64,000 bases of DNA from an uncultured Lachnospiraceae bacterium (GCA_964572475.1 CAZNEZ010000006.1:6389-70388); one strand, 5' to 3'; counted from the first letter of the stretch, positions 1,378 to 57,688 are shown. A program made the numbers and translations. Notes: generated from the sequence alone by a model not told the origin.

Positions 1378-3645
1378 ATGAAATATATTTACTTAGGATA
1401 TTCATTTTTTAGAAAGGTACGATTATTTATGGAGACATTAAGAGTTTACAAAAGATCGGTATTAGGAATTATTATTATCCTGTTTATGATCAATTTATTT
1501 TTCTTTGTTCAACAAGAGGGCAATATTTCTGAGGAAGAGATGATATATGGAGAAAATTATGATTATACAGAGTATATAAAGAATAGTGATAACGAATATA
1601 GCAAGGCAATTAAATATTATACAGGTTGGGATAATGATAGTATTATGACAGATGTAAATGAAAAACTTAGTGTACTTTCTACAGAAAATGAAACTGATAT
1701 ATATAAAATAAATGCCTATAATAGAGTTGTTGAACAGATAGAATATTATAAAGAGTATAAAACGAAGTACCAAAATATTTGTGATAATGCCAAGCAGATG
1801 TCTAGCATAGAAATTTTTGCAGAAAACAACTCATATTCAAGATTAAATATAGAAAAAACGGTTGAGGATTTCAAAAAGGTATCAAATGTAAAAACAGAGA
1901 TTGTTAATGATAAAGTAATTGATGTATGGTCTGATTACGAGATTACAGATTATATAGTATTGTTAATTATGATTCTAATAATAATGCAGTTTTTGAGTGA
2001 AAGAAAGATTGGATTATGGAGTATAATACATAGTTTGAAAAAGGGAAGACTAAGTTTAACAATTAAAAGAACGGGAATACTTGCTATTTCATCTGTTATA
2101 ATTTCCGCTATATTTTATTTATCAACGCTTTTAATTTCAATTAATATGTATGGAGCAATAAATTGGTCTGCAAGTATACAATCTATTCAGAGCTTTGAAA
2201 ATTGTTCTATACCACTTAATATAGGAGAATATATTTTGAGCGTATACCTTATTAAGGCAGCAGGTATATTTACGATTGCTGTTTTGATATGGATTATACT
2301 ATCGGTTATATCTAAGATGAATATTGCTATTCTTATTACAGCTATTATAATGGGGGCTGAATACATATCATATGTTAAGGTTACAGATATAAGCAATATG
2401 GTTCTTTTAAAATATATTAATCCCTTTGCATTTTTAAATACAAATAATTTATTTAGAAATTATCTTAATATTTTTATATTTGGTAAGCCTGTTTTTATAT
2501 TAAACTTTTGCATAGTAGTTTTACTTTTGCTGTGCATTGTAGGGGTGGGTGTTAATATTATTGTCAATCCTAGAAAATATCCAGTAAGTTCACCTAACAT
2601 AATAGAAAAGTACACTGACAATATCAGCAGGTGGCTCAATAACTTTGTTAATGGAACTAACATATTTCTTCATGAGGGATATAAACTGTTGTGGGCGCTT
2701 AAAGGTATAATAGTAGTGATGTTTGTTATTTGTATAGCACTTTTATCACAGAACTATAAACCATTACTATATGATGGCGTTTCTACTAATCTTAATAAAT
2801 ACTATAAGGAGCTATTAAATGTAAGTATAGAAGATTCGGAGCAATATTTTGATAAGTGGCAGGAGGAAATTGATGAGTTAAGTTTAAAACCTGAAATGTT
2901 TAATCAGATAGAAGATAAGAAAAAAGCACTTGATATAATATTAAAGCATAAGGATAAGCTAAAAGAGATTAAAGAGAATACAGGAATAGAAGTAAAATTC
3001 GTTAATCCATTTGGATATAATAGTTTAATTGGAGATGCAGGAGCAAAAAGAAGAGAGAAAAATGCTATGATTGAATTGTTATGTATAGCACTTATAATAG
3101 GAGGATTTGCATCTATAGATAAGCAAAACAATTCTATGGCAATAATAAGAACAACAAAAATGGGAATAAAAAAAACGTATGGAATTAAAATGATATGGAC
3201 ATTTATTGCTTCAATAATTATAGTAGCGCCAATTTCATATGTGGAATTTGAGAATGTAATAGGAAGAATGGGGCTTTCGGATTTAACAGCGCCTGTGCAG
3301 AGCTTTGTTGCACTTGGCAAATTCCCATTAAAAATCAGCCTGATTCAGTATATATTATTAATGTATATAGTGAGACTAATAAGTGCCTATATAGTAGGAA
3401 TAATTGTACTGGAAATATCAGAGATGTGTTCAAATACCAGAATAGGACAAATGCTAAATGTCTGTATTATTGTTGTACCAGCAGTACTTTTGTACATGAA
3501 TATAGATGAAGTTAAATATTTGGCCCTAAGTAATAGTGTAGGAATATCAGATATAAGTAAAGTTATACATATTGTTGTGCCTGTAGTTATTGCTATAGTA
3601 GTATTTATGATACGACATTGTAGAGAACATAAGGATAGAATATAA
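1378..3645 (+). CDS. large polytopic membrane protein, putative permease partner of the upstream ABC ATPase
   Basis: 755-aa ORF 22 nt after the ATPase. Two blocks of multiple hydrophobic helices are separated by a K/E-rich soluble segment. No named family recognised. Alternative start ATG 1429. Confidence 0.65.
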   Translation: MKYIYLGYSFFRKVRLFMETLRVYKRSVLGIIIILFMINLFFFVQQEGNISEEEMIYGENYDYTEYIKNSDNEYSKAIKYYTGWDNDSIMTDVNEKLSVLSTENETDIYKINAYNRVVEQIEYYKEYKTKYQNICDNAKQMSSIEIFAENNSYSRLNIEKTVEDFKKVSNVKTEIVNDKVIDVWSDYEITDYIVLLIMILIIMQFLSERKIGLWSIIHSLKKGRLSLTIKRTGILAISSVIISAIFYLSTLLISINMYGAINWSASIQSIQSFENCSIPLNIGEYILSVYLIKAAGIFTIAVLIWIILSVISKMNIAILITAIIMGAEYISYVKVTDISNMVLLKYINPFAFLNTNNLFRNYLNIFIFGKPVFILNFCIVVLLLLCIVGVGVNIIVNPRKYPVSSPNIIEKYTDNISRWLNNFVNGTNIFLHEGYKLLWALKGIIVVMFVICIALLSQNYKPLLYDGVSTNLNKYYKELLNVSIEDSEQYFDKWQEEIDELSLKPEMFNQIEDKKKALDIILKHKDKLKEIKENTGIEVKFVNPFGYNSLIGDAGAKRREKNAMIELLCIALIIGGFASIDKQNNSMAIIRTTKMGIKKTYGIKMIWTFIASIIIVAPISYVEFENVIGRMGLSDLTAPVQSFVALGKFPLKISLIQYILLMYIVRLISAYIVGIIVLEISEMCSNTRIGQMLNVCIIVVPAVLLYMNIDEVKYLALSNSVGISDISKVIHIVVPVVIAIVVFMIRHCREHKDRI

Positions 3646-9113: not shown

Positions 9114-9932
9114 CTAAAGTAGGGATAATTGCTGCATAGCATTATCTTTTAATATAGGTTTATAATGTTCTTTGTAAAATGATTCGCTGCTATATGTGGC
9201 TCTTTCAGGGACACCATATTCTGATAGAATGTTGCATACTCTATTAAAACCTTCTGGACTTTGATCTGATAGAGTAACCACAAGATAGTAGTGATTGTTC
9301 TTCAAGTTCTTGTATAGCGAATTCTTTCCTGAATATTGAGAAGTTGCTATTCGTGAAGCATTAATAATACAATTCAAATCTGAAAATCGATATATCTTAG
9401 TTAAATCAACCTTTATGATACTGTCAGGCTCTAGCGGATTCTTAACTCCATTAGAAGCTTTGGGTATTGAAGAAGACAAGCCTGATTCTGATAGTATATT
9501 CTGAAATGAAGAAGCTTTGTTATCCTTAGAAGCACTGTTAGCAATCTCTGATAGATTCTTAAACAAATCAACTACTTCATCAGCGCCAACAAACTCTTGT
9601 GATGATGGATCATCATCTAAATCAGTAAAGTCATCATCTTCCTCAGAAGGAGCAAATTTTGAGAACCTGGTATCAAGTTCTTCTGGGTCATCAACTTTAG
9701 TAATAATAAGAACGATACAATCTGTAGAAACAGGAATAGCTTCTATCATAAGAGGAATATCCTCGGCTTCAAATCCAAACTCGGCAGAAGCCTGCTGCAT
9801 CATATCTTTAAAAAGACCCTTTGCTTTTTCGGTACCGTATGCTAGTTCACTGATTTTAATCTGCCTGGAAGCCAGGTCCGATTTATTTAAAGTACACTTT
9901 ATCTGATTATCATTAATCTTTTCTATTTTCAT
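9114..9932 (-). CDS. mecA: adaptor protein MecA (ClpC adaptor)
   Basis: N-terminus MKIEKINDNQIKCTLNKSDLASRQIKISELAYGTEKAKGLFKDMMQQASAEFGFE...PLMIEAIP, an acidic linker, then a C-terminal domain. ATG 9932 with SD AGAGGTG is preferred to the ATG at 9959. Confidence 0.8.
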   Translation of the reverse strand: MKIEKINDNQIKCTLNKSDLASRQIKISELAYGTEKAKGLFKDMMQQASAEFGFEAEDIPLMIEAIPVSTDCIVLIITKVDDPEELDTRFSKFAPSEEDDDFTDLDDDPSSQEFVGADEVVDLFKNLSEIANSASKDNKASSFQNILSESGLSSSIPKASNGVKNPLEPDSIIKVDLTKIYRFSDLNCIINASRIATSQYSGKNSLYKNLKNNHYYLVVTLSDQSPEGFNRVCNILSEYGVPERATYSSESFYKEHYKPILKDNAMQQLSLL

Positions 9933-10114
9933 AAAAGACACCTCTTTTCTGTTGTCCAAGACAACGGGTAAAGAACATTAAAGTATCTTATCCTATATTA
10001 TATAGTATAAACCATTTTTAATTCATCTGTAAAGCCTATATTGATTAAAAAACTGTAAATTAATTACGGCAAAATATGTTAAAAATTTTAAAAATAATAT
10101 TATGAAAATAATGC

Positions 10115-10220: not shown

Positions 10221-11609
10221 TTGTTTGGAAAATATAGAATAATTAAGGTTATAGGAGAAGGAAGCAGTTGCACAGTCTATCTTGTTGAGTATATGATGTT
10301 AGGGGTTAAAAGGGCCATTAAGCAGGTAAAAAGGGGGCTCATTACAGAAGAGATTTTTTATCAGGAAGTCAATATTCTTAAGCGTCTTAAACATCAATTT
10401 ATTCCAATATTATATGATATAGAAAAAGATGATGAATTCTATTATATAGTTGAGGAATATCTACCGGGCGAATCTCTTGCCCAATTATTATCACATCAAA
10501 AACAGATAAGCCAAGAGGAAATAGTAACAATAGCATTACAGTTATGCAATATACTTGAGTATCTTTTGGAAGCCACAGAGATTCCGATTTTATACCTTGA
10601 TATACAACCGAACAACATTATTTATAAAGATGGCAGCATTTATTTGATTGATTTTGGATGTGCTAGTTTTGCAACCGATTTAGAAAACAAAAAGAATTAT
10701 TATGGAACGGTTGGATTTGCGTCGCCAGAACAGTATGAAGGTTCAATTCTAAAGGAAAGTTCTGATATATATAGTCTTGGAGCACTTATGTACTATTTAT
10801 GCGTAGGAAATAGAATTTTAAATATAAAAATTTTAGATTTTTCAGTACTTACGCATATAAGTGATTCATTTAAAAGAGTTATATGTCAATGTATGAATTA
10901 TCATATACATGAACGATATGAAACTATCTCAGAAGTTAAAGAACAGCTTATGCTGATTCAAAAAAATGAATTATCTTACATAACAGATAATGAATCTCAA
11001 AAGATATTGATTATAGGCACTAAAACCAGAGTTGGTACAACTCATTTCGCAATAGCACTTACATCATACTTGTCAAAAACAGGCGTAAATGCTGTTTATA
11101 TCGAAAAAAATAATAGTGGACATGTAATGAATATGGTTAGCAAACTTAATATGAATAGAAGAAGAGAAGGCTTTTATTATTTTAAGGATTGCAATATGGT
11201 ACCATTATATAACGATACCATAGCTATAGATATGTATGGATATACACAAGTAATTGATGGAGGGGTATATAATTCCTCTATAAATGTGGATAATTGCAAA
11301 ATATTTATAGTATCTGGTGCAAAACAATGGGAAGAGGATGGGTTAGAAGTGATACTACAGGATGTGAGTATCCGGTCAAATGCTCAGGTTATATATAATA
11401 TGGCTGATGAAAAACTAGTAAGAACAGAGAATGCAAGACATAAGGTGAACGGGATAAGAATGCCATATTGTTTTGATCCTTTTGAGGAGGATTACATTTT
11501 GAATAAGTTTTTCAATAATCTATTTGACAAAGAAATAAGGGGAAATCGGGTTGGCATTAAGAAGAAAATCAGACAGAAACTCAAAGGGAAAATTAAAAGA
11601 AATTCGTAA
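10221..11609 (+). CDS. Hanks-type Ser/Thr protein kinase fused to a degenerate MinD/ParA/TadZ-like domain
   Basis: Kinase motifs: GEGSSCTVY, RAIKQV, catalytic loop YLDIQPNN, IDFGCAS, GFASPEQ. The C-terminal ~200 aa has a deviant, Lys-less Walker A (ILIIGTKTRVGTTH). Start uncertain: the strong GGAGG at 10187-10191 is spaced for ATT 10197 or ATA 10200 rather than TTG 10221. Confidence 0.75.
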   Translation: MFGKYRIIKVIGEGSSCTVYLVEYMMLGVKRAIKQVKRGLITEEIFYQEVNILKRLKHQFIPILYDIEKDDEFYYIVEEYLPGESLAQLLSHQKQISQEEIVTIALQLCNILEYLLEATEIPILYLDIQPNNIIYKDGSIYLIDFGCASFATDLENKKNYYGTVGFASPEQYEGSILKESSDIYSLGALMYYLCVGNRILNIKILDFSVLTHISDSFKRVICQCMNYHIHERYETISEVKEQLMLIQKNELSYITDNESQKILIIGTKTRVGTTHFAIALTSYLSKTGVNAVYIEKNNSGHVMNMVSKLNMNRRREGFYYFKDCNMVPLYNDTIAIDMYGYTQVIDGGVYNSSINVDNCKIFIVSGAKQWEEDGLEVILQDVSIRSNAQVIYNMADEKLVRTENARHKVNGIRMPYCFDPFEEDYILNKFFNNLFDKEIRGNRVGIKKKIRQKLKGKIKRNS

Positions 11610-12207
11610 GAGAAGTTCAAAGGGTATACCCTTGGGAGAAAATGCTACAGGAATAATAGTAGTAGGAGAATGTGCGCAGACGGAAGATAGTAAAATGGTT
11701 TCCGTTTTACTTGCTAATTATTATGCAGGTTTTGTAAAAAAGAAAACAGCATATATTTCCCTTGCAAGTGTTAATGATTACATTTGCATAAGAGACTATT
11801 ATAGGTGCAATGAAACAAAAGGTGGTTTTGTGCTATATGATGTAATGTATAGTAATGGAACAGGAAAATCAGACATTGCAGACCTGGTTAGTAAGGGATA
11901 TGACATTATAATAATTAATGTGGGAAACAAATTTTTAAAATATCAAGATGAGATAAAAAGGTGCAGTTACAGAATTGTGTGTGGAAGAATTAACCCATTT
12001 GACAATAATTCTTTGTGCGAATTTATCAAAAGCCATACGGACGAAAAATGGACATATCTAGTTGAATGCTGGGAATCCTCAAGTATTAGGGCTTTTGAAA
12101 GGGAGTATGCGCTTACAATACATAATTTTGAATATAATATTAATCCATTTAGTATTAAAGCTGACACCATAAATTTTATTGAGGATATTATGTGTTGCGT
12201 TGATTAA
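11551..12207 (+). CDS. stand-alone degenerate SIMIBI (ParA/TadZ-like) domain protein, paralogous to the kinase C-terminus
   Basis: GIIVVGECAQTEDSKMVSVLLANYYAGFVKKKTAYISL ... YDIIIINVG has the same strand/loop/helix/strand order as the kinase C-domain but no P-loop. Only TTG 11551 (SD AAGGGG) lies upstream of the conserved first strand. Overlaps the kinase stop by 59 nt. Confidence 0.5.
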   Translation: MALRRKSDRNSKGKLKEIRKRSSKGIPLGENATGIIVVGECAQTEDSKMVSVLLANYYAGFVKKKTAYISLASVNDYICIRDYYRCNETKGGFVLYDVMYSNGTGKSDIADLVSKGYDIIIINVGNKFLKYQDEIKRCSYRIVCGRINPFDNNSLCEFIKSHTDEKWTYLVECWESSSIRAFEREYALTIHNFEYNINPFSIKADTINFIEDIMCCVD

Positions 12208-12223
12208 CGTAGAGGGAGTGTAA

Positions 12224-12826
12224 ATGATAAGGAGAAAACATAAGAAAATAATTTTGATAGTAAGTTTTTCTTGTACAATTATTGTTATTGGCATAATACT
12301 GTGTTACCTTACATGGTCAAAAAAAGATGAATTACCAGAATCTAAGTTAAATAGTAATATAGAGATTGAATTACCGAGTGCAGAGGTTAAAGCTGATATC
12401 ACGAATAATTCAGATAATATTCAAAGGTACGTTAGCTATAGTGAAATAAGTGGCATAGAATATCTAACAACAGACTCAATGTTTGATGTGCGTATATTAT
12501 TTCCAAATGGAGAAGACTATATTGTACTTAAGGAAAAAGAGGCTTATGAACTTATAGAAGGCAGGATTAAGCTAAGAGTTTCTGAAGTAGAAATACAGAA
12601 GATGTCAAGTGCAATAACGGACCTAATAGTATATCAAGGTAGTAAGATATATTTGTCAGAATATACGGGAAGTATAGCTACATCAGAAGCAGATTATCCA
12701 CCAAACTTTGATGTAATAAAGAGACTGGAATGGTCTCAAAATATATCAGACAGCCTAAAATTAGAAACGGATAGAAGCAGAAGGCAAGCACTAGAAGAAA
12801 ATCTTACAGACTTTTTTGGACTATGA
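12224..12826 (+). CDS. single-pass membrane protein (faint CpaB/RcpC-like ectodomain)
   Basis: KK-rich N-terminus followed by a TM helix (IILIVSFSCTIIVIGIILCYL), then a ~165-aa external domain. SD GGAG upstream. Family assignment is inference only. Confidence 0.5.
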   Translation: MIRRKHKKIILIVSFSCTIIVIGIILCYLTWSKKDELPESKLNSNIEIELPSAEVKADITNNSDNIQRYVSYSEISGIEYLTTDSMFDVRILFPNGEDYIVLKEKEAYELIEGRIKLRVSEVEIQKMSSAITDLIVYQGSKIYLSEYTGSIATSEADYPPNFDVIKRLEWSQNISDSLKLETDRSRRQALEENLTDFFGL

Positions 12827-12935
12827 ACAAAGAAACAAAAAGACAAAATAATCTGAGGTGTATAATAATATATCACGAACATGACCATACCCCATTGGCT
12901 GCTATACATCTCAGATATTATGATTGGAGATAAAA

Positions 12936-13172
12936 ATGCTTACTAAAAATGATAGAGAAGTATTAAAAAAGTACTTTGCGATAAGAAAAGAATTAAAAGA
13001 ATATGAAAAAAATGGTATACCAATCACTTACAATGGAAAGCTAATGAGCGCAAACTGTGTTGCAAAAATATGTGCTTTTAGTTGTAATGGACTAAGTATG
13101 CATAATACTATTTACGAAAGTGATAATATTCATTTTCGAGAAATAGAATACATGAATATAGGATATTGTTAG
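12936..13172 (+). CDS. small hypothetical protein (78 aa)
   Basis: ORF with SD GGAGA 6 nt before ATG 12936 (the track starts at TTG 12924). No motif recognised. Confidence 0.35.
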   Translation: MLTKNDREVLKKYFAIRKELKEYEKNGIPITYNGKLMSANCVAKICAFSCNGLSMHNTIYESDNIHFREIEYMNIGYC

Positions 13173-13362: not shown

Positions 13363-15096
13363 GTGAAGAGAAAAAGGAAGACAGGATTATTGTTATTGTC
13401 ATTATTTATAGCTGTTTCATTGGCTGGCTGCAGTATGGATGATTCTAATAAGGACAAAGAAGACCTGAAAAGTTATTACTCTATTACACAGAACAATCAG
13501 TGTGCAATAGTTATGGGCAATACAATTACTGAAGAATTGGGAATAATAAAAGACAGTAAGGTATATTTACCAGTTGATGTGGTGAATGAATATCTGAATA
13601 AAAAGTTTTACTATGACAGCGTAGAAAATATAATGCTGTATACAAATTCTACACAGACAATGAAAGTAGTACCTGAGACAACGGTATTTACGCTTGGCGA
13701 TAGCAGTACGGATGCTGGATATACAATATCGACAGTAGTAGAGGGCCAATTATATATTAATATTGAATTTGTTCAGAAGTATACTAATATGGAATATAAT
13801 CTGGTTACTAATCCTAACAGGGTTGTGATTACATACCAGTATAACATTCCATCCCAATATGCAGAATTAAGTAAAGATGCAGCAATACGAGTTAATAAAA
13901 GCAGATATGATAATATCCTGGAAGATGGAAGCCAAGGTCAAAAAGTCATTGTAATAGGTGAGGATAATGGATGGCAAAAGGTTAGAACACAATCTGGATT
14001 AATAGGATATATTGAATCAGATTCGTTGGATGAAATCAAGACAGAGACATTGTCAAGAGAGTTTAAAGAAGAAGTCTATAAGAGTATTTCCAAGGATTAC
14101 AAGATAGCACTTGCATGGCATCAGATGATATACGAAGGTGGTAATAGTTCATTTGAAGAGAAGACAGCTAATGCGAAGATTAATACGATATCTCCAACAT
14201 GGTTTACTTTAGATGGAAATAATGGAGAAATCAAGTCTATTGCAGATGCTTCGTATGTTAAAAAAGCGCATAATAAAGGTTGGGAAGTATGGGCACTTAT
14301 TGATGACTTTTCAAAGGATGAAGCAGGGAACCTTTATGTTTCTAGTGTATTATCCTCAACAACCACAAGGCAAAAGTTAGTATCTAACATTATGTCTGAA
14401 ATTTTAGATAATGATATTGATGGTATTAATATTGATTTTGAGAAGATTTCTAAGGCAAATGTCAAGAATTATCTTCAGTTTCTTAGAGAATTATCAGTTG
14501 AATGCAGAAAGAATGAGATAGTATTATCTGTAGATAATTATGTTCCGACTGCGTCTAACTCATATTATGACAGGGAAGAACAAGGTCAAATTGCTGATTA
14601 TGTAATAGTTATGGGATATGATGAACATTGGGCAGGATGCGGCTCGGCAGGTTCTAATGCTTCATTGCCATTTGTAACAAGTGGAGTAAAGGATACGGTT
14701 GCAGAGGTTGATTCTAAAAAGGTTATTAATGCCATGCCGTTTTATACAAGAGTGTGGATTGAGACACCAGAAGCTATGGCGGAAGAAGGCTCAACTATTA
14801 TAGAGGATTCTGTATATGGCAATTATGCATTGAGTAGTAAAACCGTTGGAATGACAGCGGCATCTGAAATGCTTAGTAGTCACGGAGTAACACCGACATG
14901 GGATCAGAGCATAGGACAGTACTACGGACAGTATGAAAGTGAAGGAAAAACATATAGAGTATGGGTTGAAGACACGAAATCTATTGGAGAAAAGATGAAA
15001 TTAGTATCAGAATATAACCTCGGTGGAATTGCAGCATGGAAGTTAGGACTTCAAGATGATGCTGTATGGAATGTAATATCTGAAGGATTGAAATAA
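13363..15096 (+). CDS. glycoside hydrolase family 18 lipoprotein with SH3b domain (YaaH/YdhD-type peptidoglycan hydrolase)
   Basis: Lipobox SLAGC. SH3b-like segment GQKVIVIGEDNGWQKVRTQSGLIGYIESD. GH18 catalytic motif DGINIDFE. GTG start with SD AGGAGA. Confidence 0.8.
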   Translation: MKRKRKTGLLLLSLFIAVSLAGCSMDDSNKDKEDLKSYYSITQNNQCAIVMGNTITEELGIIKDSKVYLPVDVVNEYLNKKFYYDSVENIMLYTNSTQTMKVVPETTVFTLGDSSTDAGYTISTVVEGQLYINIEFVQKYTNMEYNLVTNPNRVVITYQYNIPSQYAELSKDAAIRVNKSRYDNILEDGSQGQKVIVIGEDNGWQKVRTQSGLIGYIESDSLDEIKTETLSREFKEEVYKSISKDYKIALAWHQMIYEGGNSSFEEKTANAKINTISPTWFTLDGNNGEIKSIADASYVKKAHNKGWEVWALIDDFSKDEAGNLYVSSVLSSTTTRQKLVSNIMSEILDNDIDGINIDFEKISKANVKNYLQFLRELSVECRKNEIVLSVDNYVPTASNSYYDREEQGQIADYVIVMGYDEHWAGCGSAGSNASLPFVTSGVKDTVAEVDSKKVINAMPFYTRVWIETPEAMAEEGSTIIEDSVYGNYALSSKTVGMTAASEMLSSHGVTPTWDQSIGQYYGQYESEGKTYRVWVEDTKSIGEKMKLVSEYNLGGIAAWKLGLQDDAVWNVISEGLK

Positions 15097-15219: not shown

Positions 15220-15945
15220 ATGATTAAAAATAAAATAGGAGAGATTATTAAGTTTACTACAGGAAGTAAAAGAAGAATTCTAGAGTTTGTAATGGGGATT
15301 TTGATGTTATCAGTGATATATGCATGTGCAATGCAGGCTAAAGATATTGCTACTATGAATGAGGAAAAAATACCCAAGATAGTGGTTATAGATGCTGGTC
15401 ATGGTGGGAATGATCCTGGTAAAGTTGGGATTAATGGTGCATTGGAAAAAGACATAAATCTTCAAATATCATTAAAAGTAAAAGATATACTGGAAAAACA
15501 AGATATTAGTGTTGTACTGACAAGGGAAGGCGATGAAGGGTTATATGATGAAAGTGATTCTAACAAAAAAATAGCAGATATGGTTAAAAGATGTGATATT
15601 ATAAATGGATCAGGAGCAGTAATAGCAGTTAGTATACATCAAAATAGTTATCATTCTGAAGGGGTTTCAGGTGCACAGGTATTTTATCATTCAAGTTCAA
15701 CGGAGGCAAAAAAACTGGCAGAAGGTATTCAATTAAGCCTAAAGGATAATGTTGATGAAGGAAATCAAAGACTGGCAAAAAGTAATAGTAGCTATTATTT
15801 ATTAATTCATTCACAATGTCCTATGGTTATTGTAGAATGCGGGTTTTTATCGAATTCTTCAGAGGCAGATATGCTGACTACAGATGAATATCAGAATAAA
15901 TTAGCTTACGCCATCAGTATGGGAATCATTTCATATGTAAATTAA
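15220..15945 (+). CDS. N-acetylmuramoyl-L-alanine amidase (Amidase_3), CwlD-like
   Basis: N-terminal TM helix, VVIDAGHGGNDPGKVG, SIHQNS, ECGFLSNSSEA. Its ~240-aa size and position next to the GH18 gene fit a CwlD-type cortex amidase. Confidence 0.8.
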   Translation: MIKNKIGEIIKFTTGSKRRILEFVMGILMLSVIYACAMQAKDIATMNEEKIPKIVVIDAGHGGNDPGKVGINGALEKDINLQISLKVKDILEKQDISVVLTREGDEGLYDESDSNKKIADMVKRCDIINGSGAVIAVSIHQNSYHSEGVSGAQVFYHSSSTEAKKLAEGIQLSLKDNVDEGNQRLAKSNSSYYLLIHSQCPMVIVECGFLSNSSEADMLTTDEYQNKLAYAISMGIISYVN

Positions 15946-47077: not shown

Positions 47078-47881
47078 TTATAATTTAGGTTCATTATGAC
47101 TAGGCTTAAGATTAGGAGCTTCAGGAGCTTCTGAATTAAGAACATCTAAAGAAATCTTCATTATATTCTTAACTTCTTCCTCTGATAGAGACATATATTC
47201 ACAAAGCTCTTCTATGGTTGCCTCACGTCCTAATTTTTCTGCAAGTGTAGTTGAAGCATCACTTAATGCGTTTGCACGATCAGCGAGATGATTAGCTATT
47301 CGTTCAGAACCTGTTTGTTCTGCTATAGCATTTTCAAGAGACTGACATATAGATTCCCTAATATGAGAAGTAAAATCAGAATCTCCAGAGTAGGTTTTGA
47401 TTCCCTGAACTAGTCCCAGATTACCTTCCTGAATAAGGTCTCCCATGCCTACTCCATTTCCTTTGTAATTTTCAGCTAAATCTAAGACATATTGTAGCTT
47501 TAATTCAATTAATCTTTCAGAAGCTCCGGTATCACCAGACAAATATTCCTCGATAAGAAGCCTTTCTTCATCAGGTCCAGCAGGAACAATGGCATCCAGT
47601 TCTTCCAGATACATATTAACAAAATTAATCTCCATAGGGTCTTCTTTAACAACGTCATTTGTTACATTAGAGGAAAATTCGTTGTTAAGAGGGGCCTGAT
47701 AATGTTCGATAGAGATTTTGTTAGCAACTAAATATTCATATATATGTTCATACATATCTTTATTATCTATAATATCTTTAAATGTATCCTGTATCTGAGT
47801 GAGCTTTAACTTGTTGTTCTGAACACTAGCAAGTTCAACTAATGAGGCTAATGCTTGATTAAATTCAAATTTCTTATCCAT
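47078..47881 (-). CDS. primary-sigma-like protein with regions 1.1-3.1 but no region 3.2/4
   Basis: Region 1.2/2 (FVNMYLEEL..., LIELKLQYVLDLAENYKGNGVGMGDLIQEGNLGLVQGIKTY) and region 3.0/3.1 (LAEKLGREATIEELCEYMSLSEEEV) align with RpoD. The protein ends about 25 aa later. ATG 47881 with SD GGAG. Confidence 0.65.
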   Translation of the reverse strand: MDKKFEFNQALASLVELASVQNNKLKLTQIQDTFKDIIDNKDMYEHIYEYLVANKISIEHYQAPLNNEFSSNVTNDVVKEDPMEINFVNMYLEELDAIVPAGPDEERLLIEEYLSGDTGASERLIELKLQYVLDLAENYKGNGVGMGDLIQEGNLGLVQGIKTYSGDSDFTSHIRESICQSLENAIAEQTGSERIANHLADRANALSDASTTLAEKLGREATIEELCEYMSLSEEEVKNIMKISLDVLNSEAPEAPNLKPSHNEPKL

Positions 47882-48099
47882 AAAAACTCCATTCTTTATA
47901 ATTAAAAGGTTAATGAGTAACACTTAAATTGTACAAGGAATGTGTAAAAAATGCAAGAACCATCTAATCTTGGTAAGCTAGATAAGTTAAAGAAAGAGAA
48001 TAAGATGTAAATATAGATAATTCTGGTAAATAGTCAGGATTGAATACAAAAGAGTTTTGTTGTATAATAATTTCAATTGTATTTGAATAGGAGAAGAAT

Positions 48100-49272
48100 A
48101 TGAAAGCAATTAAAAAAACTATTGAATGGATTAAAAATAAAACAAAAAATAAAAAAGTAAAGATAGTACTTAAGATAGTTGGAGCATTACTGGCGATGTT
48201 AATTGCAGGTGGAATAGGAATAGGCTTAGCATTTGGTGAAAAAGCTGGAGATCCTCTTACATTTGCAAAAAAGTATTTTGACAGCTATGCAACTCAGAAT
48301 TGGAAGACAATGTATGATATGATAGATGTTAAAGAAAGCGCTTTTGTTAATTATAAGTCCTTTGAGCAGAAGATGGTATCTGAAAAAGTATATGGGGGAT
48401 ATTCAGATTATGAGTTTGGAGAAACAAAAGAGATAGATGGTAAAACCCATATTGTTGTAACATATGTAAGAGCTTCTAATCAAGAACAAGGAGAACTGGA
48501 TATAGTCCTTGAGAAGCAATCAAAGAAGACATTTTTATTTTTCTCTACTTGGAAGGTAAACATTGACGACTGGATTATTGATGAATCAAAAGTAACTGTA
48601 CCAAGTGGTATAACCATTGAATTTGATAGTAATGATATCAGTGGATATGATAAACAAGAGAATGAAAATACAGAAACATATAGTTTGGGTAGAGTATTTG
48701 TGGGTGAACACAATTATACAATTAAGTCTGCATATATTGATTCAACAACAACAGCCGTAGATATTTCAAAAGACAGCCCAGATTATGAAATCAAACCAGA
48801 AGATCTTAGCATGAAAGCAGACCAGCTTGAGGATATAAAGAATAGAGGATTAGATATTATTGTAAGTATGTATGCTTCTGCAATGGAGGAGAGTGGAACG
48901 GATAATATTCTTTCTAAGGTAGATACAGGTGATGAAACTAAGACTAAGATGAATGAGTGCTATCAGACATTAGTAAATGCAGTTAACCAAGAGGATGGGG
49001 CAACGCTTCTTAGTATGAATATAGATAAATATACATCATATCTATTTAGATATGGATATCCACTAGAAGCTGAGATAAAGGTAGACTTTGAATGTAGCTT
49101 TACAGCGAGAACAGGTAATAATTTTAATAAACTTAATTATTATCAGACAGTAAGAAAGAAATACGAAGGAACAGCAAGTGGAACAGCAAGTGTAGTGTTT
49201 AGACTTAATGGAGATACGTGGACTGCTACAGATATTAACCTTGAATGTTTTGATTATAGCTATCAAGGATAA
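48100..49272 (+). CDS. membrane-anchored hypothetical protein
   Basis: K-rich N-terminus and a TM helix (IVGALLAMLIAGGIGIGLAF), then a ~330-aa external region. No motif recognised. SD GGAGAAG. Confidence 0.55.
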   Translation: MKAIKKTIEWIKNKTKNKKVKIVLKIVGALLAMLIAGGIGIGLAFGEKAGDPLTFAKKYFDSYATQNWKTMYDMIDVKESAFVNYKSFEQKMVSEKVYGGYSDYEFGETKEIDGKTHIVVTYVRASNQEQGELDIVLEKQSKKTFLFFSTWKVNIDDWIIDESKVTVPSGITIEFDSNDISGYDKQENENTETYSLGRVFVGEHNYTIKSAYIDSTTTAVDISKDSPDYEIKPEDLSMKADQLEDIKNRGLDIIVSMYASAMEESGTDNILSKVDTGDETKTKMNECYQTLVNAVNQEDGATLLSMNIDKYTSYLFRYGYPLEAEIKVDFECSFTARTGNNFNKLNYYQTVRKKYEGTASGTASVVFRLNGDTWTATDINLECFDYSYQG

Positions 49273-56204: not shown

Positions 56205-56345
56205 CTCTTATTCAGAGTGGTGGAGATACAAGGATCTGTGAAGCCCGGCAACCCCATATGGAAGGTGCCAACCTGAGCGAGTAATCGAGCAATAAGAGGA
56301 TTTGATTACCTTGATATCGAGTCCGCATTTGTGTGGACTTTTTTT
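56205..56345 (+). promoter_or_regulatory. SAM-I (S-box) riboswitch with terminator
   Basis: P1 CTCTTATT / AATAAGAG. Core AGAGTGGTGGAGATACAAGGATCTGTGAAGCCCGGCAACC...GGTGCCAACCTGAGC matches the S-box consensus. Terminator AGTCCGCA-TTTG-TGTGGACT followed by T7 (56320-56345). Upstream of metK. Confidence 0.88.
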
Positions 56346-56366: not shown

Positions 56367-56433
56367 CAACATAGAACATTTAAGAAGAATACGAAGTATT
56401 CTTCCAAGTGTTCACGCTGGTGAACACTTTTTT
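56367..56433 (+). repeat. twin-hairpin intergenic element, copy 3 (inside the metK leader)
   Basis: CAACATAGAACATTTAA + GAAGAATAC-GAA-GTATTCTTC + CA + AAGTGTTCAC-GCTG-GTGAACACTT + T6. Flanked by a perfect 29-nt direct repeat (56340-56368 and 56428-56456). Confidence 0.9.
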
Positions 56434-56500
56434 ACTTTATAGGAAGCTACGCAGCAGCGTAATGTCACATATTTGTGATAAAACAGAAATGGAGGAAACA

Positions 56501-57688
56501 ATGGAAAAATTATTATTTACATCAGAATCAGTTACAGAAGGACATCCAGATAAAATGTGTGATGCTATTTCAGATGCAGTGCTTGATGCGCTTATGGAGC
56601 AGGATCCAATGAGCCGTGTTGCATGCGAGACTTGTACAACAACAGGTTTAGTTATGGTTATGGGAGAGATTACATCAAAAGCTAATATTAATATTCCAGA
56701 GATAGTAAGAAATACAGTAGCAGAGATTGGCTATACCAAGGCAGAATATGGATTTGATGCAAAAACTTGTGCAGTTATGGTTACACTTGATGAGCAGTCA
56801 GCAGATATTGCAATGGGAGTTGACAAGGCACTTGAGGCTAAAGAGAGCACAATGACAGATACAGAGCTTGATACTATTGGCGCTGGAGATCAGGGAATGA
56901 TGTTTGGATTTGCTTCAAATGAAACAGATGAATACATGCCATATCCTATAGCTCTTGCTCATAAGCTTGCTTTACAGCTTACAAAAGTTAGAAAAGATGG
57001 AACATTAAGATACTTAAGACCAGATGGTAAGACACAGGTAACAGTAGAATATGATGAAGCAGGTAAGCCAATTCACCTTAATGCAGTTGTATTATCAACA
57101 CAGCATGATGAAGATGTTACACAGGAGCAGATTCATAAAGACATTAAAAAGTATGTATTTGACCCAATTCTTCCTAAAGAGTTAGTTGATGATGATACTA
57201 ATTTCTTTATAAATCCAACAGGAAGATTTGTAGTTGGTGGACCACATGGAGACAGTGGACTTACAGGAAGAAAGATTATCGTTGATACTTATGGTGGATA
57301 TGCAAGACATGGCGGTGGAGCTTTTTCAGGTAAGGATTGCACAAAGGTTGATCGTTCAGCAGCTTATGCGGCAAGATATGTTGCTAAGAATATTGTTGCT
57401 GCTGGGTTAGCTGACAAATGTGAAATTCAGCTTTCATATGCTATCGGAGTTGCACATCCAACTTCAGTTATGGTTGATACATTTGGAACAGGCAAATTAT
57501 CAGATGATAAGGTTGTTGAGATTATTAGAGAGAACTTTGACTTAAGACCAGCTGGAATTATTAAGATGCTTGACCTCAGAAGACCAATATATAAACAAAC
57601 ATCTGCCTATGGACATTTTGGAAGAAATGATTTAAACTTACCATGGGAACAATTAAACAAAGTTGAAGCATTAAAAAAATATTTATAG
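56501..57688 (+). CDS. metK: S-adenosylmethionine synthetase
   Basis: [43 protein letters not shown] 56501 with SD GGAGGA. The listed 56408 start reads through the repeat element and is rejected. Confidence 0.95.

Follow-up and report, generated by a model that had tools for sequence, protein, structure and literature searches.

A Hanks-type kinase fused to a ParA/MinD/TadZ-like domain in Lachnospiraceae, and its relatives in divergent Tad-like loci

The four-gene module

The DNA analysed here, a stretch of 64,000 nucleotides from an uncultured Lachnospiraceae bacterium (GCA_964572475.1 CAZNEZ010000006.1:6389-70388) that we call the window, contains between positions 10,221 and 13,172 a run of four open reading frames (ORFs), headed by a gene that fuses a Hanks-type kinase to a ParA/MinD/TadZ-like domain. 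We describe this module and the wider occurrence of its gene families, three of which recur in other organisms beside a CpaF-type ATPase. All four ORFs lie on the same strand; the kinase gene and ORF2 overlap by 59 nt, and ORF2 and ORF3 are separated by 16 nt. An initial annotation, made from the sequence alone, had placed the four ORFs at these coordinates, and our reading of the window recovered each of them with every motif that had been quoted, including GEGSSCTVY, AIK, YLDIQPNN, DFG and SPE in the kinase half. The features are as follows.

10221..11609, plus strand: kinase-fusion gene, 462 amino acids (aa), with the Hanks-type kinase at the N-terminus and the ParA/MinD/TadZ-like domain at the C-terminus
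10221..10961, plus strand: kinase domain, aa 1-247 (Pfam Pkinase)
10593..10616, plus strand: catalytic loop YLDIQPNN, aa 125-132 (from the sequence itself)
10962..11609, plus strand: ParA/MinD/TadZ-like SIMIBI domain, aa 248-462 (AlphaFold/Foldseek and profile)
11016..11045, plus strand: P-loop remnant GTKTRVGTTH, aa 266-275 (HMMER alignment to Soj)
11551..12207, plus strand: ORF2, 218 aa, stand-alone paralogue of the ParA/TadZ-like domain
12224..12826, plus strand: ORF3, 200 aa, single-pass membrane protein, SAF-less member of a CpaB-like family
12924..13172, plus strand: ORF4, 82 aa from a TTG start, or 78 aa from the ATG at 12936 used in public gene calls

About 100 full-length relatives of the fusion protein, 450-520 aa long, were found, and the identical protein is present on five public contigs. 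The kinase half matches Pfam Pkinase (PF00069) over aa 5-238, scoring 130.5 bits where the cut-off is 31.7 (E 9.7e-38). In an alignment of 35 family sequences, K34 of the VAIK motif, E49 of helix alpha-C, the catalytic D127 and D144 of DFG are invariant, and G162-T163 and P169-E170 of the P+1/APE segment vary little or not at all; the window protein also has N132. Its glycine-rich loop reads GEGSSCTVY, and this loop is degenerate in many family members. The catalytic loop YLDIQPNN is atypical, as the initial annotation had noted: it keeps the Asp and the Asn but has neither the His-Arg of HRD nor the Lys of the loop, and no compensating Lys stands at D+4. The family pattern is [YH][LQ]D[LI][QK]P.[NH]. 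Among 98 members, the Arg of HRD is missing in 96, and the position of the catalytic-loop Lys is occupied by Q in 57 and by K in 39. Many of the Q-form kinases read LDLQPKN and thus have a Lys at D+4, which recalls the HRDLAARN layout of tyrosine kinases. Because the window loop departs from HRDxKxxN, kinase activity is uncertain, and judging from its motifs this half could be either an atypical kinase or a pseudokinase.

The C-terminal half, which carries ILIIGTKTRVGTTH, was modelled with AlphaFold (aa 248-462, alignment of 45 sequences) at a predicted local distance difference test score (pLDDT) of 89.4 and a predicted template modelling score (pTM) of 0.84. Foldseek searches of this model against the PDB placed MinD 4v02 first (E 9.5e-6), followed by FleN, FlhG, ParA 3ea0, Soj and BcsQ, with the HypB-type ATPase and dethiobiotin synthetase (DTBS) also among the matches (E 1e-5 to 1e-3, TM-score 0.45-0.58). 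The top 50 matches are all of the SIMIBI class, mostly of MinD/ParA type, which is the fold that the initial annotation had read from the order of the secondary-structure elements and had put forward for a structure search. A profile of the domain built from 74 sequences found its best PDB sequence match in Soj 1wcv, subthreshold (E 0.033) and over the P-loop region, where HMMER puts GVGtTH of the domain family opposite GVGKTT of Soj. The elements follow one another as beta1, P-loop, alpha1, a Walker-B-like D346-x-G348 and a GxK(P)WE strand motif.

In the P-loop of the window protein, GTKTRVGTTH, Thr replaces the lysine of GK[ST], and K268 occupies the site of the ParA signature lysine. Across the family the motif reads G-x-x-x-G-x-G-[TVA]-T-H. 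None of 92 proteins and none of 84 loci has the GK[ST] lysine, and no more than about half of the 84 loci have K or R at the signature site. Two members, P0068 and P0048, have KGGVGTTH and KGGIGTTH, in the same register as K268-T-R-V-G-T-T of the window. The hallmark of ParA/MinD proteins is KGGxxK[ST] (PMC11407121), and CpaE of Liberibacter has KGGVGSS, without the second lysine (PMC8513845). A lysine-less P-loop is therefore a trait of the subfamily and by itself no evidence of a dead domain. The label "nucleotide-dead" given in the initial annotation was overstated, given that CpaE natively has the lysine-less KGGVG[ST][ST] (PMC8513845) and that the window protein keeps K268. The fused domain is a fold member of ParA/MinD, but it is no canonical ATPase, since its deviant Walker A departs from the motif with both lysines; from the residues present, nucleotide binding without turnover would be as likely as no binding. 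The structure of TadZ from E. rectale reportedly contains bound ATP.

At its C-terminus the fusion has a tail that is strongly basic and predicted to be helical, VGIKKKIRQKLKGKIKRNS (window 11514-11609), with a net charge of +10 over its last 32 aa; the tails of the family are basic and amphipathic, with a mean net charge of +4.6 over the same length. By analogy, this tail may bind the membrane as that of MinD does. Relatives often end in tails of the type GG(I/A)(L/I)RK(L/I)(F/W)GKIK(R/K)F, resembling the membrane-targeting sequence of MinD.

ORF2, which carries GIIVVGECAQTEDSKM and YDIIIINVG, has no N-terminal domain of any kind. The view that it is a stand-alone second copy of the fused-domain fold is confirmed by profile comparison: hhalign between the family of the kinase C-terminal domain and the ORF2 family gave 99.6% (E 9e-24, 182 columns), and a profile hidden Markov model (HMM) of the ORF2 family built without the window scored window ORF2 at E 2e-26 and the kinase at E 1e-12. 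Against PDB sequences, a profile of 72 ORF2 orthologues matched PF-32, FleN and Soj at subthreshold values (E 0.027 and above). Most orthologues retain GxGRxxGxTH. Window ORF2 reads GECAQTEDSKM at this site; in the motif statistics of the 84 loci it is the only copy from which the conserved G, T and H have all gone. Word-indexed searches for homologues, with ORF2 and ORF3 as queries, returned only near-identical proteins and one relative; orthologues were gathered by position in the fetched loci and by exhaustive search of representative proteins.

ORF3, with DVRILFPNGEDYIVL and IKLRVSEVEIQKMSSAI, is predicted to have its N-terminus inside, with a hydrophobic segment at about aa 8-30 following a basic N-terminus and a conserved C-terminal domain at about aa 85-200 (12476-12823). 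The exhaustive profile search defined a family of 1157 representative clusters at E<=1e-3, 828 of them at E<=1e-10, with lengths mostly of 250-350 aa. A SAF domain was detected in 21 of 35 relatives scanned, ChapFlgA was matched in 13 of the 35, and the family profile matched FlgA 3frn (E 5e-5) and RcpC 9gzr (E 0.039) in the PDB. The faint resemblance to CpaB noted initially thus gains substance through the relatives. In window ORF3 itself the SAF domain was not detected, and the transmembrane (TM) anchor and the conserved C-terminal domain are retained. This C-terminal domain (FPNGEDYIV...SSA...YP.N...) is matched by no Pfam RcpC model and no PDB sequence. A structure model of ORF3, built from two sequences, was unusable (pLDDT 50), and its Foldseek matches are meaningless.

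ORF4 had been described as a small ORF that ends the run. It turned out to be a diverged member of a conserved cytoplasmic family with a core of about 75 aa, represented by a positional orthologue in 71 of 84 loci, where the usual gene order is kinase fusion, ORF2 and a small ORF4-type ORF. The family consensus is GLxRYxxxGIPIxIDG...EDGSFYMGDY...LxEIRFDRVY, of which the window copy lacks EDGSFYMGDY. A family HMM built without the window nevertheless ranks window ORF4 first of the 520 window ORFs (E 0.0013). Neither Pfam nor the PDB yielded a relative of ORF4, and its profile gave nothing credible against the PDB. ORF3 is the more dispensable gene of the two: of 90 genome-type loci, only those on the window's own strain contigs and one from another organism have it, and a further relative, P0123, was found separately.

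Motor-associated and orphan loci

Homologues of ORF3 occur both in kinase modules and, on metagenomic contigs, in loci that encode a CpaF-type ATPase. In six of the latter loci (L096, L106, L126, L128, L129 and L131), the gene order is kinase fusion, ORF3 homologue, two families here called '239' and '276', and a CpaF-like ATPase. Three (L106, L126 and L128) continue with a polytopic membrane protein of about 670 aa and at least one small protein that has a hydrophobic segment at its N-terminus; in the remaining three, the contig ends before the position of the polytopic protein. The ATPase has 620 aa, and its sole matches among PDB sequences are to CpaF (E 6e-10). The polytopic protein has no PDB sequence relative and no Pfam match; from its position it may be the putative "platform" of the machine. 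These complete-type loci sit after rpsB-tsf-pyrH-frr (the upstream end was checked in L096, L126, L129 and L131) and contain no GH18 gene. Their kinases are canonical (IYRDLKPSN, GTGGSGKVY), and their ParA-like domain is already lysine-less (GVQTGVGVTH). In L128, the one complete-type locus in which the ORF3 homologue was tested for SAF, Pfam did not detect the domain.

The ORF2 family is homologous to the '239' family of these loci (hhalign E 2e-6, 181 columns). The '239' HMM has ORF2 as its top match among the 520 window ORFs (E 0.0031), and reciprocal HMM matches agree. The '276' family has only weak matches to AAA_31 and ParA 3ea0 and aligns to '239' with hhalign at E 2.6e-5. One locus, L095, combines the kinase C-terminal domain with ORF2, the ORF3 homologue, '239', '276' and the ATPase, and some 16 others carry the same Tad-like set but no kinase.

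Among the loci with a motor, those of L128 (166-11782), L110, L117, L122 and L126 are complete CpaF-type Tad-like loci in which Pfam detects only SAF and a weak T2SSE. Each encodes two or three lysine-less ParA-like proteins, a polytopic membrane protein of about 670-700 aa and three or four small proteins that begin with a hydrophobic helix; in L128, the next protein has repeats that by eye resemble S-layer homology (SLH) repeats. Loci of this type have the appearance of a so far uncharacterised branch within the type IV filament superfamily.

The commoner arrangement is an orphan one. A genome scan, whose tight search alignment biases the genome set towards LD[LI]QP-type kinases, identified a relative of the fusion in 320 species genomes; the metagenome set, gathered with a back-translated DNA pattern, is biased towards the ORF3 motif FPNGEDY[IV]V. 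The titles of 80 fetched loci are almost wholly Lachnospiraceae, Clostridium and other Clostridia, cultured strains included, and the carriers comprise Hungatella hathewayi, [Clostridium] symbiosum, Enterocloster species and C. asparagiforme from the human gut. The module, conserved as three or four genes near the replication origin and annotated only as "serine/threonine kinase", lies between mecA and GH18/CwlD: among 90 genome-type loci, GH18 is 3' in 88, a divergent mecA is 5' in 76 and CwlD is present in 59. This arrangement is conserved across the fetched loci and was also seen in independent contigs. No motor or pilin gene was found within about 7 kb of the orphan-type modules in these 90 loci. 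Two loci (L104 and L134) have the module in the opposite orientation, with mecA and GH18 still on either side. In L145 (1-9700), a mobile element of about 9 kb lies directly 5' of the kinase, where the sister strain L144 has mecA. This element encodes ParA/ParB, SSB, Dam and other DNA methylases, REP_ORF2-G2P and HTH_38, and the strain belongs to a very common gut organism (the carrier of P0094).

The window shows the orphan arrangement, with the following context genes, whose listing does not imply membership of the module.

9114..9959, minus strand: mecA, divergent from the module (Pfam MecA, E 1.5e-71)
13363-15096, plus strand: GH18 hydrolase with an SH3 domain (Pfam)
15220-15945, plus strand: CwlD-like Amidase_3 (Pfam)

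On the 5' side lie gdpP, rplI, dnaB, a MerR regulator, a ferredoxin, a DUF1858 gene and mecA; on the 3' side GH18 and CwlD are followed by sua5, a low-molecular-weight phosphatase, rpiB, a dCMP deaminase and the ATP synthase operon. The region from gdpP, rplI and dnaB to sua5 and ATP synthase is syntenic across the family, and in relatives the SpoIIT and SipL genes near the module give the neighbourhood a spore-cortex flavour. The initial statement that no motor, pilin, FHA protein or PP2C phosphatase is nearby could be extended to the whole window: a Pfam search of 45 ORFs, including most of the larger ones, found no CpaF-type ATPase, Tad component, pilin, FHA or PP2C in the 64 kb, and tblastn of the window with divergent CpaF-like, platform-like and ParA-like queries gave no match. 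Near the module no Rfam element was found, the sigma-70 promoter scan was not enriched relative to shuffled sequences, and the terminator scan gave 6 sites against 2.6 expected in shuffles, none of them at the module boundaries.

Some further features of the window were recorded. The GH18 product (13363-15096) also has Cu_amine_oxidN1-like domains. A SAM riboswitch at 56205-56298 (Rfam RF00162, 68 bits) lies 5' of the S-adenosylmethionine synthetase gene (56408-57688). Two ORFs, 1378-3645 (755 aa, directly after an ABC-transporter ATPase) and 48100-49272 (390 aa), have no Pfam match at E<=1e-5. At 47078-47923, on the minus strand of a window that is otherwise almost wholly plus-strand, lies a gene for a 281-aa protein of the sigma-70 family with regions 2 and 3.

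Origin and possible role of the module

Given that three of the four families recur beside a CpaF-type ATPase, we consider it somewhat probable, at roughly 0.55, that the module, operon-like in its arrangement, is the accessory (TadZ-like and CpaB-like) part of a divergent Tad-like system, that is, of a type IVc filament system, from which it derives or with which it is shared. The initial conclusion that the genes match no described system is accordingly revised, since distant members of three families do stand in CpaF-type ATPase loci. That annotation had also reckoned with homologues being routine components of an annotated Tad/Flp pilus locus elsewhere in the genome, and what was found comes close to this: Tad-like loci with the same families exist, but in other organisms and not annotated as Tad.

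Under the accessory-part reading, the first protein would tether a cytoplasmic Ser/Thr-type Hanks kinase to a TadZ/CpaE-like domain that at most binds nucleotide and is no normal ATPase. Since ParA/MinD proteins form sandwich dimers (PMC11407121), the fused domain and ORF2 may dimerize, as a pseudo-heterodimer or as homodimers, into a non-hydrolysing scaffold for assembly or localization. This scaffold could be held at the membrane by the basic amphipathic tail, by ORF3, or by both, with ORF3 as a putative membrane-anchored CpaB/RcpC-like relative that has lost its SAF domain and ORF4 as a probable small conserved cytoplasmic partner. The kinase would phosphorylate recruited partners or, if eroded, act as a pseudokinase adaptor. 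In organisms with a complete locus, the fusion may couple phosphorylation to the assembly or positioning of the CpaF-driven machine, replacing the receiver-like N-domain of TadZ. In the window lineage and in hundreds of Lachnospiraceae species, the module might act in trans on a machine encoded elsewhere, or might have been re-used for another envelope-associated process.

Several observations weigh against this interpretation. The Pfam RcpC model is unmatched by the ORF3 family (35 relatives), and TadZ 3fkq is absent from the top 50 Foldseek matches of the fused domain. The HMM-to-sequence links from the kinase C-terminal domain to '239' and '276' are weak (E 0.009-0.07), and the kinase-bearing motor loci represent essentially one lineage plus L095. 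In a neighbour-joining tree of kinase domains, the complete-locus kinases group with conventional kinases (81% bootstrap) and not with the orphan type, a placement that would fit either two independent fusions or one fusion after which the orphan type diverged very fast. Each of the four window genes shows erosion of conserved motifs, and polymorphism is skewed to non-synonymous changes, so that function in the window genome may be weakened. The heterodimer is a proposal, as is any substrate of the kinase.

Other explanations place the module outside a filament system, at least in the Lachnospiraceae. There, the kinase/TadZ-like/CpaB-like layer of an ancestral Tad-like machine, freed from its motor, could have been exapted as an autonomous, phosphorylation-controlled ParA-like scaffold for a different envelope process, one candidate being peptidoglycan remodelling by GH18 and CwlD in sporulation or division; this is possible, if doubtful. 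Alternatively, the module may be a sporulation or cortex regulator with no link to pili, which controls or localizes GH18, the CwlD-type amidase or MecA/ClpC proteolysis. The near-constant GH18, the frequent CwlD and the divergent mecA of the orphan loci, together with SpoIIT and SipL in relatives, agree with such a role, and in B. subtilis, too, a Mrp/MinD-type gene, salA, stands beside cwlD. However, the whole region is syntenic across the family, so the adjacency to GH18, CwlD and mecA may be inherited position only; moreover, the module is inverted in L104 and L134 and separated from mecA by the mobile element of L145, related fusions lie after rpsB-tsf-pyrH-frr beside a CpaF-type locus without GH18, and a sporulation promoter was looked for and none was identified. 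We regard a sporulation regulator as unlikely. It is distinctly unlikely that the module of the window lineage is a decaying, functionless remnant of an ancestral system. The window kinase lacks Lys at both D+2 and D+4, the ORF2 motif is lost, ORF3 is SAF-less and ORF4 lacks EDGSFYMGDY, and across seven strain contigs the module has 2 synonymous and 6 non-synonymous polymorphisms against 9 and 3 in its flanks, a difference that is not significant (p = 0.065) and comes from a tiny count. Such a remnant is hard to reconcile with four ORFs that are intact in every strain contig, with the retention of K34, E49, D127, N132 and D144, and with an ordinary divergence of the kinase relative to GH18 in the window lineage (ratio 0.86, compared with 0.72-1.00 in other lineages). 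The strain polymorphisms give at most a hint of relaxed constraint on the window module.

The two remaining proposals concern systems of other kinds. As the initial annotation had read them, two dead ParA-type domains and a kinase could form a self-contained, undescribed positioning or localization switch unrelated to Tad. The kinase C-terminal domain and ORFs 2 to 4 are covered by no family of Pfam, NCBIfam or PADLOC, the orphan arrangement is dominant in the sampled genomes and we found no literature on the module, all of which would suit such a switch; yet the recurrence of three families beside a CpaF-type ATPase, the P-loop of CpaE/TadZ type and the ORF3 relatives with SAF domains make it highly unlikely. 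A kinase-based anti-phage defence system is extremely improbable. The kinase does match PADLOC PD-T4-6 and mad6 (E down to 8.6e-42) and NCBIfam MADS6 and PglW, all far below the cut-offs, but these matches cover the generic kinase domain only (aa 3-267), ORF2, ORF3 and ORF4 have no PADLOC match, and a fixed core-genome position across a bacterial family is atypical of a variable defence island.

The module is made of parts of known kinds, namely a Hanks kinase, a TadZ/CpaE-like ParA fold and a CpaB-like SAF family. In the literature searched, we found no description of a kinase-TadZ-like fusion, of multiplied lysine-less ParA-like proteins in one locus, or of a motor-less version that is widespread in Lachnospiraceae and fixed there at a single chromosomal site. 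The link to Tad-like systems gives four "hypothetical" families a testable frame, that of adhesion, pilus or envelope organization under Ser/Thr phosphorylation, in carriers that include abundant and cultured Lachnospiraceae of the human gut. It also exposes a CpaF-driven filament locus with several lysine-less ParA-like proteins that current domain libraries largely miss. The fusion would be a natural example of a positioning-ATPase fold serving as a non-hydrolysing scaffold joined to a kinase, which bears on the evolution of ParA/MinD proteins and of pseudokinases. If the exaptation proved true, a pilus-positioning module would have become a general cell-biological organizer in dominant gut commensals.

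Comparison with known systems

With the Hanks-type Ser/Thr kinases of the PknB/PrkC/Stk1 group, the fusion shares the Pkinase fold, the VAIK Lys, the alpha-C Glu, the catalytic Asp, the Asn, the DFG Asp and the GT...[AS]PE P+1 motif. In contrast to that group, it has neither a TM segment nor PASTA domains, and it is a non-RD kinase (Y-L-D). The ORF3 relatives share with CpaB/RcpC and FlgA an N-terminal TM segment and the SAF domain, and they occupy the position of cpaB, 5' of TadZ-like and CpaF-like genes; window ORF3 has the membrane anchor but no SAF domain.

Proteins of the MinD/ParA/FlhG/FleN group are the best structural matches of the fused domain, with a Walker-B-like Asp and a PE-type strand motif, although the TM-scores are only about 0.5-0.58 and the P-loop Lys is absent in all members. 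Many members of the fusion family additionally have a basic amphipathic C-terminal tail reminiscent of the membrane-targeting sequence of MinD.

A further close parallel is TadZ/CpaE. The fusion has the same MinD/ParA SIMIBI fold, a lysine-less Walker A (GVGTT here, KGGVGSS in Liberibacter CpaE; PMC8513845) and the same two-domain layout, a regulatory N-domain followed by a ParA-like C-domain, and its distant relatives adjoin a CpaB-like gene 5' of a CpaF-type ATPase. It differs in that no Tad machine stands beside the window module or in the 90 genome-type loci, a CpaF/TadA locus being confined to distant members (L095, L096, L106, L126, L128, L129 and L131). The signature Lys is often lost as well, and up to four ParA-like proteins are encoded per locus instead of one. 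The N-domain is a Hanks kinase, whereas that described for TadZ is an atypical receiver domain (bioRxiv 10.64898/2026.07.08.737194). A TadZ-TadA fusion and receiver-less TadZ variants are known (bioRxiv 10.64898/2026.07.08.737194) and provide a precedent for the modularity of TadZ.

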